DNA of 11,578 bases, taken from the NCBI RefSeq assembly GCF_006345805.1, contig NW_021827056.1, forward strand, positions 1 to 11,578, written 5' to 3'. The stretch is from Octopus sinensis (lineage: Eukaryota). Positions within the stretch are counted from its first letter, which is position 1, and each line of letters starts with the position of its first letter. A program made the translations under genes and the position numbers. Below the pieces are notes generated by a model that saw nothing but the letters and a program-made list of their open reading frames with translations, ran no database searches and was not told the origin of the DNA. Of the stretch, positions 2,889 to 11,114 are shown piece by piece.

Positions 2889-2898
2889 AAAACGAACC

Positions 2899-3044
2899 GG
2901 CTTCTTTCAGTTTCTGTCTACCAAATTCATTTACAAGGCTCTGGGTTGGCCCGAAGCTATAGAAGAAGACACTTGCCCAAGGTGTCACAACAATTGGACT
3001 GAACCCAAAACCATGTGGCTAGGAAGCAAGATTGTTACCACACA
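2899..3044 (-). mobile_element. tRNA-derived SINE fragment, family A copy 2
   Basis: Homologous to 701-840 along its length. It retains the CTATAGAAGAAGACACTTGCCCAAGG segment missing from copy 1 and has a B-box-like GGTTCAGTCC on the minus strand. Confidence 0.85.
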
Positions 3045-3149
3045 AGTTTTTTTTTTAAATTTTCGGCTTTAGAATTATAAGCAGCTCAGTGACCGGTGCC
3101 GTTGAGCTTTGAAAATCATTTATATTATTTTGCAGCTGAATATGTGTCC

Positions 3150-4377: not shown

Positions 4378-5005
4378 CCACTTGATACATGACCCAAGTG
4401 TTTTTGTGTATTTGTGTGTGGTAGGGAAGTGCCGATTTCATTATAAAAATCGTCTTTCGATTCGCTCTTCCTTTTCAGTAACTTACTAGTTGATTAGCGT
4501 TTTATTTTCATTGGCCAGGGTCCAACGAGGAACAGATGCTAAACTGACCTCAATCGTATCTGAATTTAGATCCCAAAGAGATGATGCGAGCTCATTCTCA
4601 TCCGATGTCCTTTCGGACAAATGAACGCCTGCTGTGTCCCTTCCTGCTTCCCGAGGCTTCGTAGTCTCCGTTGCAGCAGTCCATGTCACGACTTATAGTT
4701 TTTACGATGTTCACAGAGCATTGAGCAACAGTCGTGATGTCGGCATTTTGATACCTGGCGTAAATCATTCATGATACGAGTAACTCTTTACCAATATTCA
4801 GATGGCTTCCAGTCCTCCATGTCAGCTAACTGTTTCTCAACAACAACTTTAATATTTATGCTCTCCAACGCTGTTGACTGTTCACAAATATATTAAGGTG
4901 TTCCTGAAAAAAGGTGACGTAATAAGATGTCAAATTTAGCCCGAACATTCTGTATAACAACATTATCATTTATGCGAACGATAATAAAGCACAAATCGAT
5001 AATAT

Positions 5006-5280
5006 TGCTCTTATGATAGCAGGCACAAATGATAACCTGTTACCGAGATACAAGAGCTGTAAGCTTATCGTTGGTTCACCATAGATATTCTCTTTTCTCT
5101 AACTTTTGATGAGATATTCCCATCCACCACCGGTTGGCTGATCTCTACAACAGTGCAGGATTTTTGCTCCTTGTTCCATAGAGCAATATCTGGCTTGTTG
5201 TGTAAATACTGAATTCTTGATTTTATTGGAATTCTTCACCTGCTTCCTTTATTTTTGAAGTGTGTATATATCCTAGATTT
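5006..5280 (-). pseudogene. Decayed restriction-like endonuclease (PD-(D/E)xK type) domain of an early-branching non-LTR retrotransposon (R2/R4/NeSL group)
   Basis: Manual minus-strand translation from 5202 gives HNKPDIALWNKEQKSCTVVEISQPVVDGNISSKVREK, then after a frameshift ENIYGEPTISLQLLYLGNRLSFVPAIIRA. This fits the xKPDI...(D/E)...K...Y...P-I-I-G pattern of RLE LINEs. Not in the ORF track. Confidence 0.8.
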
Positions 5281-5444
5281 CGTGTATCTCTAATGTAGCT
5301 GTCACTTCAATTCTTCATGCTAACAGATAGTAAAAACGGTAAAGCGAAAATGTCATTCATGTCTAATAGAAAAAGTAGTCCTTTGCAGATATTTTTTGAA
5401 TTGCTACTAATGATGTTTCGCTTACGAGAAGTAAGCGAAACTCA

Positions 5445-6100
5445 CCAACTGTTATACTAAATCGAGTTGATGATTTTCTATATTTGGCCAGCTGGATAAG
5501 TTCATCAAAAAACGACATTGACATTACGATTACCAAAGCCTGGGCTGCTGCAATGAACAAACTGGAAAAGATATGGAAGTCAGATCCATACAGAAAGATC
5601 AAAATATCATTCTTCAGAACATCTGTTGAGTCTGTTGTTATATGGATCACGTACATTGGCCCTGACGACACAAACATTTGAGAAGAAACTAGATGGTGCA
5701 TACACTAAAGTGCTTAGCGTTCTACAAAGCACGACTTGGCGTCAACAAATAAAAGTTTATACGGAAACTTACTCAAGATAAGAAATACATTTGTTCAAAG
5801 ACGATTAAGATTTGCAGGACATTGCAGGAGAAAGAAGCAGGAAGTTACAGAAGCTATTATTGTAGGAACCAACTCACGGAAAACGCAGTAAAGGAAGACT
5901 TTCTCAAACATTAACTGGCAGACGATACGTATTAACTGGCAGACGATACGTATTAACTGGCAGACGATACGTATTAACTGGCAGACGATACAAAGCTCAG
6001 TAATGGGCAGCTATCACGAGCAATAGAAACTCGTGAATTGTGGAGAGAGACTTCGTGAGGAATGTTCGACTGTGGTCACAATGACGATTACTGCTGATGT
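5445..6100 (+). pseudogene. Decayed 3' end of an RTE-clade LINE ORF2 (end of RT and C-terminal domain)
   Basis: VDDFLYLASWISSSKNDIDITITKAW..MNKLEKIWKS..KIKISFFRTSVESV from 5466 (FxYLGS-like), EKKLDGAYTK (5680-5709), RRLRFAGHC (5799-5825) and KLLL*EPTHGKRSKGR (5851-5898). Frameshifts and an in-frame stop are present. Confidence 0.88.
5910..5991 (+). repeat. Perfect 21-bp minisatellite, 3.9 copies, inside the RTE fragment
   Basis: ATTAACTGGCAGACGATACGT at 5910, 5931 and 5952, plus a 19-bp partial copy at 5973, with no mismatches. Confidence 0.97.
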
Positions 6101-6230
6101 GAGCAATCTCTTCCTACCTGTTAAGGAGTAGTCGTAATTTTCTGTCACAATTTGGAAATATCAAGGTACCCTTGTCCTGTTGTTCCGGTACTTAGTTTGC
6201 TATCACCTGTTCTTGAACAGCAAAAGCGGT

Positions 6231-6778
6231 GGAGGCGAAATGGCCCAGTGGTTAGGGCAGCGGACTCACGGTTTCGATTCCCAGACCGGGCATTGTGTGT
6301 GTTTATTGAGCGAAAACACCTAAAGCTCCACGAAGCTCCGGCAGGGGGTGGGTGGCGACCCCTGTTGTACTCTTTCGCCCCAAATTTCTCTCACTCTTTC
6401 TTCCTGTTTCTTTGTCCCCGACTTCCTACGCAACCGCTGAGCCTGGATGCGCATTCATCCATCCGTCGATGCTCTTCTGCTTTCTCTTCTGCGGGTCTTA
6501 TGAATAGCAAAGGACCACGTTTCGGACTTCTCCCTTTGGGACGAAGACAGCTTCGCTCAACAGATCCAGGAGAGGTTACAATTCCTGTCAATGTTAAATG
6601 GTATTCTCTCGCTTGCGGCATATTAACGAATGCATAAACGTCTGGCGAGGCAACGAATATTGGCTGTTCAAGGTTCTCGTTAAGCAGGTTAGTGCAGCTA
6701 CCCTCAATTTCATGATGAGCGGCTGTACGTTCAGAACACCTATTCAAGAGGTCTTTATCTAATCTTATGATATTATTT
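6231..6778 (+). mobile_element. tRNA-derived SINE, family B head with a long body
   Basis: A box TGGCCCAGTGG (6241-6251) and B box GGTTTCGATTCCC (6270-6282). The GC-richer body ends in a TATTATT-type tail near 6771-6778. The head is homologous to 4305-4324 on the minus strand. The 3' boundary is approximate. Confidence 0.8.
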
Positions 6779-9793: not shown

Positions 9794-9983
9794 GTTTCAT
9801 ACCAAGACTTGAGATAACACCAGCAATCATCAGAAAAAGCTGAAAGAAAAAGCATGGCGTGGATTCTTTGCCACCGGACGTCTGAAACGGTCACATCGGG
9901 TTGTGGAAAAGAACCCACGCTATACATTTCCTTTTATTTATATCTGATGATTGCTAGGATTATCTCAATTTCCGGTATGAAAC
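9794..9983. repeat. Imperfect long inverted repeat (foldback), 81-bp arms with a 28-bp spacer
   Basis: 9794-9874 matches the reverse complement of 9903-9983 without gaps at 63/81 (hand count). No target-site duplication was seen. Confidence 0.9.
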
Positions 9984-10010
9984 CAATTGGGAAGTGCTGA
10001 TACGAAAATA

Positions 10011-10219
10011 CAGGGTGTTCGTAAATTATCTTTACAACTTTCACAATTTAGTGCCTTTGTTAAAGTTGGGATCCCCCAATCAACTTCCTTGCAACCAATG
10101 GAGCCCACGTAAATGTGTTTCTGTTTGCCTATGTTTTCCAATAAACCCTGCAGAGTTATTCTTATTTTTCAGTGTTTTCTGAATTTTTCGAATAGTAAAG
10201 ATAATTTATGGACACCTTG
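10011..10219. mobile_element. Tc1/mariner-type MITE, 209 bp, TA target duplication
   Basis: TIRs CAGGGTGTTCGTAAATTATCTTTAC (10011-10035) and GTAAAGATAATTTATGGACACCTTG (10195-10219) are 22/25 complementary, flanked by TA at 10009-10010 and 10220-10221. No transposase ORF. Confidence 0.9.
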
Positions 10220-10249
10220 TATATTACTGCATTTTATTAATAATAAAAC

Positions 10250-10691
10250 CCGACAGGAGACGTCGATGTTTCCTAGGGCTAAATGGCGGTGGTGTAATTC
10301 CCTTACGGGACTGTCACATTGAGTTGACAGTATACGACCACTTTATCGCCCCACCACTGATATGTCTCTCTGAGACATTTAGAAATTCAATATTTCTAAT
10401 TTCGGTGATCAGTAAATAAATTTTACTGAAAATATGATATATTTGCGAAGAGGTTGCGGTCATCTCAGCGAGCGAGACTGGCTACCTTGAACTGACGACG
10501 AGCAATACACTCAGAAACATGTCTTCAGGTGCTTAGTCCCAGCTGGCGGGGGTGATTGCCTCCCCTTTGCAAATATAAGGACACAGAAAATGTGTCAAAG
10601 CCGACAGGAGACGTCGATGTTTCCTAGGGCTAAATGGCGGTGGTGTAATTCCCTTACGGGACTATCACATGGAGTTGACAGTATACGACCA

Positions 10692-10742
<51 letters not shown>

Positions 10743-10745
10743 ATA
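10250..10745 (+). mobile_element. Retrozyme-like non-autonomous retroelement: 351-bp unit x1.26, (TA)n tail, 14-bp TSD
   Basis: 93-bp direct repeats at 10250-10342 and 10601-10693 (91/93 identical, period 351). Internal hammerhead at 10486-10529, (TA)n at 10694-10745, and identical ATTAATAATAAAAC at 10236-10249 and 10746-10759. Confidence 0.8.
10486..10529 (+). ncRNA. Minimal type I hammerhead ribozyme
   Basis: Stem I CTTGAA(10486-10491)/TTCAGG(10524-10529), extendable with bulges to 10476/10538. Canonical core CTGACGA (10492-10498); stem II GAG-CAATACA-CTC (10500-10512) closed by a C/A mismatch; GAAA (10514-10517); palindromic ACATGT (10517-10522); cleavage triplet GUC with the site after 10523. 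Confidence 0.8.
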
Positions 10746-11114
10746 ATTAATAATAAAACATATGCTTATACATACATATATGTACGTACCTACCTCTACA
10801 TGTATATATACATGCATATATGGGTACAGGACACCAAAAACCGTCGAACACAATGAGAAACGAAAACATAAACACAAAACCAAGGAACTGGACATTTTTC
10901 TTAAACACCGAAAAAATAGAGTACAGGACATACAAAACAAGGAAAATTCCCCTTCTTCAGTCGCCATGGTTTCATCTACTCTGCGTTTCGAAGGTGAAGG
11001 CGATATGCATCTTCGATAGAAACTTTCCTTCCCGCGAAAAGCAAAATAAAATTTGAGATCTTTTTGTGGCGGGGCAAAAATGGTAACAAAAACAGGACAG
11101 TAACGACAGTACAA

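Follow-up and report, generated by a model that had tools for sequence, protein, structure and literature searches.

The window analysed here is the whole stretch of 11,578 nucleotides. It contains, on the forward strand, an inserted element at positions 10250–10693 composed of 1.26 copies of a 351-nt unit. The element is followed by a (TA)n tract (10694–10745), and both lie inside a perfect 14-bp target-site duplication beginning with ATT (left copy 10236–10249, right copy 10746–10759, identical). The duplicated 14-mer occurs only twice in the window, and matches as long as 14 were found at none of 696 AT-rich and none of 9520 non-simple control positions. The full unit (10250–10600), delimited by the repeat spacing of 351, is circularly permuted and non-coding, and its GC content is 44.4%. 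Its first 93 nt (10250–10342) recur at 10601–10693 with two mismatches. Other copies read through this junction, so that the redundancy is a partial tandem and the LTR interpretation of the 93-nt repeat was rejected. Stop codons are present in all six circular frames of the unit, which rules out an endless open reading frame on the circle. No frame for a Penelope-like reverse transcriptase (RT) or a GIY-YIG endonuclease was found in the unit, its flanks or the window. The search for tRNA genes returned none, and no Pol III B box was seen in the element. The unit is predicted to pair strongly with itself: its fold has the energy of −130.4 kcal/mol (z −7.05, 0 of 100 shuffles), 68% of the nucleotides are paired, and five base pairs show candidate changes on both sides.

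Several other repeats are present in the window. Just upstream of the target site of the element, a MITE-like repeat (10010–10222) has terminal inverted repeats of about 47 bp that start with CAGGGTG and are framed by TA; we take it to be a Tc1/mariner-like MITE. Further upstream, 9794–9874 and 9903–9995 form an inverted pair of an old repeat with arms 78% complementary. Each arm carries CUGAUGA, a U after it and a U before GAAA, and the plus copy has a palindrome after GAAA and lacks UH; the pair looks like inverted pLTRs of a decayed Penelope-like insertion. A hammerhead-like hairpin in a repeat end at 1015–1055 (UUGAAGA, a GAGC/GCUC stem, GAAA and CGUU; fold z −0.78, not significant) is a possible minimal Penelope hammerhead. 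A broken coding-like stretch at approximately 5000–6090 contains a threefold 20-bp tandem at about 5930–5990. Atlas assigned it to unnamed clusters at 0.95 with an RVT_1 lead at 0.88, the protein search gave no match for any of 59 candidates, and the stretch is presumably the 3' part of an RTE-type LINE. One SINE-like repeat, represented by two diverged copies that follow microsatellites, and a tRNA-like SINE head lie at about 700–835, 2895–3045 and 6225–6430. No tRNA was called in them, and they resemble octopus repeats. Finally, a local direct duplication of roughly 100 bp is located at about 232–350 and 405–500.

The second half of the unit contains a type I hammerhead motif at 10476–10538, identified by coordinates, pairing, descriptor scan and family variation, with the cut predicted after 10523. 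The original prediction placed the core boxes exactly: CUGACGA at 10492–10498 with G5 at 10494, GAAA at 10514–10517, and GUC at 10521–10523, along with the palindrome ACAUGU at 10517–10522. It identified the motif itself correctly and did not mention that it lies in a 351-nt unit, or that a target-site duplication and a tail are present. The boxes CUGANGA, GAAA and UH stand at a three-way junction open at helix I. The full descriptor (the core, helix II of at least 3 bp, helix I of at least 4 bp and a palindromic helix III) matched one site in the window and was matched in 1 of 2000 dinucleotide shuffles, a lenient estimate given that the descriptor was written post hoc. Less specific measures gave no signal: the bare core boxes had four matches in the window (13 of 200 shuffles reach four), and the folding energy of the 63-mer was not significant (z −0.61). 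The Rfam search that had been proposed as a check found no hammerhead at E≤1 for the window and E≤10 for 10200–10695. The hammerhead is present as described and is not a chance match; Rfam misses hammerheads of this sort.

A repeat of MITE or satellite type, propagated as DNA and carrying a dead or accidental hammerhead, would account for the lack of an Rfam match. Repeats rich in hairpins are common, and the element has two inverted-repeat elements immediately upstream. Nevertheless, such an origin is highly improbable, considering the rarity of the descriptor among shuffles (1 of 2000) and the lack of terminal inverted repeats at 10250 and 10693. Moreover, the terminal redundancy, the 14-bp duplication and the tail point to reverse transcription.

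The hammerhead forms the tip of a long rod at 10438–10577, an inverted repeat of 140 nt with a significant fold (z −5.29, 0 of 200 shuffles). The long bulged helix I of the original prediction agrees with the modelled pairing: 10476–10491 pairs with 10524–10538 and runs into the rod. It starts with six proximal pairs (10486–10491 with 10524–10529, one of them U.G), beyond which come an irregular part and then a distal stem. Helix II (10499–10513) has at its base the opposition C.A (U-A in the less common copies), with G-C, A-U and G-C pairs and a 7-nt loop above it. Thus C10499/A10513 is a mismatch, as stated in the original prediction, and the G10500–C10512 pair is directly above it. The core is adjoined by C.A or U-A, with the G-C pair one step higher. 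One reading of the letters takes C.A as position 10.1/11.1 in a helix II of four steps; the other takes C10499 as an extra nucleotide after A9 which, together with an extra A, lies under a normal G-C pair. Helix III is formed by the palindrome, which has 6 nt here and 8 nt in part of the family. That stem III is palindromic was recognized correctly. The 2 bp with a 2-nt loop ascribed to it in the monomer are to be replaced by one pair closing the tetraloop CAUG, since a 2-nt loop is unrealistic. The view that helix III of this type I hammerhead, one of the retrozyme/Penelope world, is stable only between copies agrees with the folding models and with the axolotl analogue HHR_Amex1. The label "minimal", in contrast, is not supported. 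According to the sizes given by Cervera and de la Peña (2014), minimal Penelope hammerheads have helix II of 7–8 bp, helix I of 4–5 bp and no loop III, whereas here helix II has 3 bp plus C.A, helix I has 6 bp with an extension, and loop III is present. Helix I of 6 bp, helix II of four positions and a weak helix III correspond to the canonical metazoan type.

Parts of the stretch were found in 20 of the 24 listed sequencing runs, which come from 11 studies and four organism codes. Four of the 24 (X1, X2, X7 and X10) were compared over 10200–10600 at 80% likeness, with 1854, 2153, 1017 and 272 aligned contigs, respectively. None of the listed runs is recorded as RNA, which has no bearing on expression, and X10 being RNA is a guess. 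All these data are contigs, and so depth does not measure copy number, nor do shares measure allele frequency. Contig depth at the ribozyme relative to the flank is 96–120-fold in X1 and 203–236-fold in X2 (again, not copy number), and elsewhere in the unit it peaks above 10,000-fold. The left flank 10200–10241 is covered in X1 and X2 (depth 37 and 48) and has no coverage in X7 and X10. The head-to-tail junction from 10600 to 10250 is present in five contigs of X1 and eight contigs of X2, at approximately 12-fold flank depth. Diverged contigs bridge 10368–10507, 10469–10571 and 10491–10600. In the four runs, no single contig piece extended over the whole unit, and no array containing two full ribozymes turned up. 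Behind 10342/10346, 33 contigs of X1, 29 of X2 and 14 of X7 continue into AT-rich loose ends with the mutual agreement of about 0.5. As these ends disagree with each other, the position marks a 3' end shared by many copies, at which the second copy of the redundancy (10601–10693) also ends. The loose ends before 10246/10250 are the unit end in other copies, and hence 10250 is the private 5' truncation point of this copy. In all four runs, the ribozyme arm (10424–10535) is far shallower than 10256–10345, 10368–10400 and 10564–10591. This may reflect commoner relatives with a different arm, or short truncated copies sharing a second 3' end near 10405, or depth inflation, given that summed contig depth could inflate the variable parts of the unit. 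We do not take the drop as a mark of cut templates, since the depth falls near 10550 and not at 10524. Scans of collections gave no matches in metagenomes and none in viral contigs; a lone 19-nt match (L001) showed no further similarity and was discarded as chance.

The contigs also show how the motif varies within the family. The share of depth with T at position 10499 is 41, 15, 19 and 40% in the four runs, the remainder being C; among the 40 variant rows listed out of 55, there was no G at 10499 and no change at 10513. Since C is the majority letter, with U-A formed otherwise, and a G-C pair lies directly above, the C/A closure is a family trait. The closure had been ascribed to a family-specific variant or to decay; the former applies and the latter does not. 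Helix III occurs as ACAUGU or ACAUAUGU, both of them palindromes. The longer form results from an AT insertion at 10518 (36, 38, 42 and 77% of depth in the four runs), which leaves the sequence palindromic and, in the folding model, makes the duplex more stable (−7.0 instead of −4.6); slippage would equally produce it. Eight sites of the 63-nt motif are variable, none of them among the 12 core sites (P 0.16, not significant alone). No variable site breaks a hammerhead pair, provided that 10479 and 10535 change together. Position 10487 is C in all listed depth, so that U.G of this copy becomes C-G; it was scored as pair-breaking because the lowest-energy fold uses another register. In the 40 variant rows listed, five base pairs across the unit had changes on both sides that keep the pair, against a null mean of 0.78 (P 0.0005). 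These are candidates, as the structure was taken from this copy alone, the phase of the changes is not visible and 15 of the 55 rows are hidden; moreover, DNA-level repair of inverted repeats can mimic compensation. A looser test of compatibility with the structure gave 27 of 40 against 22.3 expected (P 0.049).

The original prediction held that the ribozyme needs dimerisation. In the modelled lone unit, 10494–10497 pairs with 10520–10523 (P 0.73), a 4-bp mispairing that locks the core; it takes 4.0 kcal/mol to open this lock and 4.5 kcal/mol to close the only pair of helix III. The double hammerhead in a tandem (−261.4 kcal/mol) is equal in energy to two independent units (2 × −130.4 kcal/mol). 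The unconstrained tandem fold is 16.9 kcal/mol lower than the double hammerhead because it includes a 20-bp pairing of 10255–10274 between units. Nested models cannot combine this inter-unit pairing with the double hammerhead, and all these energies ignore magnesium and tertiary contacts. The region 10255–10274 is itself a hairpin with a nearly self-complementary loop, and in the tandem model the pairing between units here extends over 20 bp. As a seed for a kissing-loop dimer it was set aside as a weak lead, since single contigs with other junction letters lose the self-complementary loop.

Published cleavage data come from related elements. In the axolotl study (PMC7229834), Amex1 and Amex2 cut by 6% and 22%, respectively, as monomers and far better as dimers. 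Newt hammerheads whose helix I extension contains an internal loop are able to cut as monomers, and for Xenopus retrozymes eight of nine predicted dimers were silent in vitro. For a viroid hammerhead, a review states that an extra C after A9 is harmful and an extra U helpful, and hence the commoner (C) form here may be the slower one. Based on the folding models and the axolotl data, we favour a ribozyme that would work poorly alone and better in pairs; the newt and Xenopus findings are ambivalent. "Needs dimerisation" is too strong for the family, considering that 36–77% of contig depth has the longer palindrome, which allows 2 bp and a tetraloop, and that newt hammerheads can cut as monomers. 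This longer form also suits an efficient monomer ribozyme, in which the irregular extension of helix I would dock on loop II and offset the weak helix III, making dimers unnecessary. The six proximal pairs of helix I followed by an irregular stretch fit such docking, as do the newt hammerheads and the invertebrate retrozymes that cut as monomers. Still, we regard efficient monomer cleavage as improbable: the single helix III pair of this copy is costly to close, its core is predicted to be locked, helix II has a mismatch at the base, and the closest analogue cut 6% in 1 h in the axolotl study.

In size, GC content, large target-site duplication and structure, the element agrees with the published definition of non-LTR retrozymes: the unit is within 150–450 nt, has GC under 50%, is non-coding and multi-copy, and the duplication exceeds 4 bp. 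The element is probably a non-LTR retrozyme, a kind already known in animals, with no new chemistry or element class. According to Cervera and de la Peña (2020; PMC7229834), metazoan non-LTR retrozymes likewise have a type I hammerhead in a non-coding 150–450-nt unit (350–390 nt in mussel, 330 and 350 nt in axolotl, 351 nt here), GC under 50%, a long target-site duplication, strong self-pairing and a head-to-tail junction. What sets this locus apart from the retrozymes described there is its 1.26 units with a single ribozyme, the C.A or U-A at the foot of helix II, and the (TA)n tract behind its fixed 3' end. In the same paper, axolotl HHR_Amex1 has a 1-bp helix III with a palindromic tetraloop similarly to this copy. 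HHR_Amex2 resembles the ACAUAUGU form in closing its tetraloop with 2 bp and in being mismatched at the helix II base, the mismatch being U.U there and C.A here. Both forms of helix III align to one unit here, whereas in axolotl they belong to two repeat families. Minimal Penelope hammerheads share with this one, if C10499 is so read, an extra nucleotide after A9 (consensus CUGANGAH, with C in several rows), a G-C pair above it and a palindromic helix III. In the rows for Hydra and D. willistoni, as parsed here, helix II has an additional U on either side, which like the axolotl U.U is a precedent for a mismatch at this place; AGAAA occurs in 1 of 56 core entries (the row is not assignable). 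Unlike the element studied here, they mostly lack loop III and flank an RT-endonuclease frame.

The locus contains one ribozyme and not the two consecutive units, each with a full hammerhead, that define an active locus (Li 2026). With one ribozyme, its transcript would be cut at most once, and no circle would be released by the locus alone. In addition, the insertion crosses the cut site unbroken, and hence its template was either uncut or re-ligated. The study on retrozyme "monomer derivatives" (Li, Clavereau, Pollet 2026, 10.64898/2026.07.22.740005) regards similar dispersed single units as descending from active copies arranged in tandem. The fixed internal 3' end, the 5' truncation and the AT-rich target starting with ATT match the behaviour of a Penelope-like RT, which by analogy we infer to be the partner; this RT starts internally and its endonuclease prefers ATT. 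Copies of Poseidon of Anolis (Frangieh 2024, PMC11167929) likewise terminate at a constant internal position past the hammerhead, and the target is AT-rich with a preference for ATT. The likeness is one of behaviour. Poseidon is autonomous, and its copying starts 111–118 nt into the ORF with the cut at 26, as compared to about 170 nt past the cut here.

These features would also fit a Penelope-like element, either non-autonomous or internally deleted, whose copies derive from linear tandem RNA left uncut, with cutting rare or protein-dependent and no circles involved. We consider such an origin fairly unlikely. The fixed 3' end, the 5' truncation, the partial tandem and the AT-rich target suit it, and the tail inside the duplication suggests a linear template. 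The high depth flanking the ribozyme arm could reflect a commoner parent with another sequence there. According to PMC11167929, the anole element has a protein-assisted ribozyme and uses uncut RNA as its main template; published work on Penelope-like RT also shows insertion without the need for cutting, and Xenopus retrozymes resemble pLTRs. Against it, the helix sizes are canonical and differ from the minimal type of pLTRs, and the folding is strong throughout the unit. The whole order of the unit is common to copies diverged by about 9–13%, and thus the element is not a one-off deletion. In each of the four runs, only 0.01 of aligned contig sequence continues into unlike sequence, a weak argument given that contigs break at branches.

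The element is probably one dispersed daughter of a metazoan family of non-LTR retrozymes, mobilised by a Penelope-like RT and equipped with a ribozyme that would work better in pairs. Tandem source copies would be transcribed, and two hammerheads would swap strands, their palindromes forming a helix III of 6–8 bp, and cut after GUC. The unit-length RNA released could then be closed by a host ligase, and the core lock of the lone unit (10494–10497 with 10520–10523) would spare the circle from cutting. The Penelope-like RT-endonuclease would nick AT-rich DNA, start at a fixed internal site approximately 170 nt past the cut, copy more than one unit and stop early, which would give the 5' truncation at 10250. 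One point against this scheme is the (TA)n tract inside the duplication, which is not expected from a pure circle template; the tract may be a tail, a co-copied flank or a later expansion. Also against it are the failure to see a two-ribozyme array in the four runs, the shallow coverage of the ribozyme arm, the lower energy of the free tandem fold, the silent Xenopus dimers, the harmful extra C of the viroid hammerhead and the lack of a partner Penelope frame in the window. A more specific and tentative version, which we hold to be unlikely as a whole, is that the family has a throttled ribozyme gated by pairing. In this version, C.A/U-A and the 6- and 8-nt palindromes would represent slow and fast forms, and the end, ATT and the tail would record Penelope-like internal priming. 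The 6-nt and 8-nt palindromes should then each pair best with their own kind.

No description of an octopus or cephalopod retrozyme or hammerhead family was found in the literature searched, repeat libraries and Lunse 2017 being outside its scope, and the main text of the 2026 Octopus vulgaris repeat annotation contains none of the search words for such a family. The survey by Li, Clavereau and Pollet (2026) covers 35 genomes, with no mollusc among the four invertebrates it names by class. Animal retrozymes make abundant circular RNAs, and according to the discussion in PMC7229834 both the route by which they are copied to DNA and the way in which circles avoid cutting themselves are open questions. 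Owing to its clean ends (the duplication, the truncation and the shared 3' end) and natural ribozyme variants, the octopus family is handy material for both of them. If gating by pairing proves true, the family would provide a direct test of what moves animal retrozymes and whether cutting is needed.
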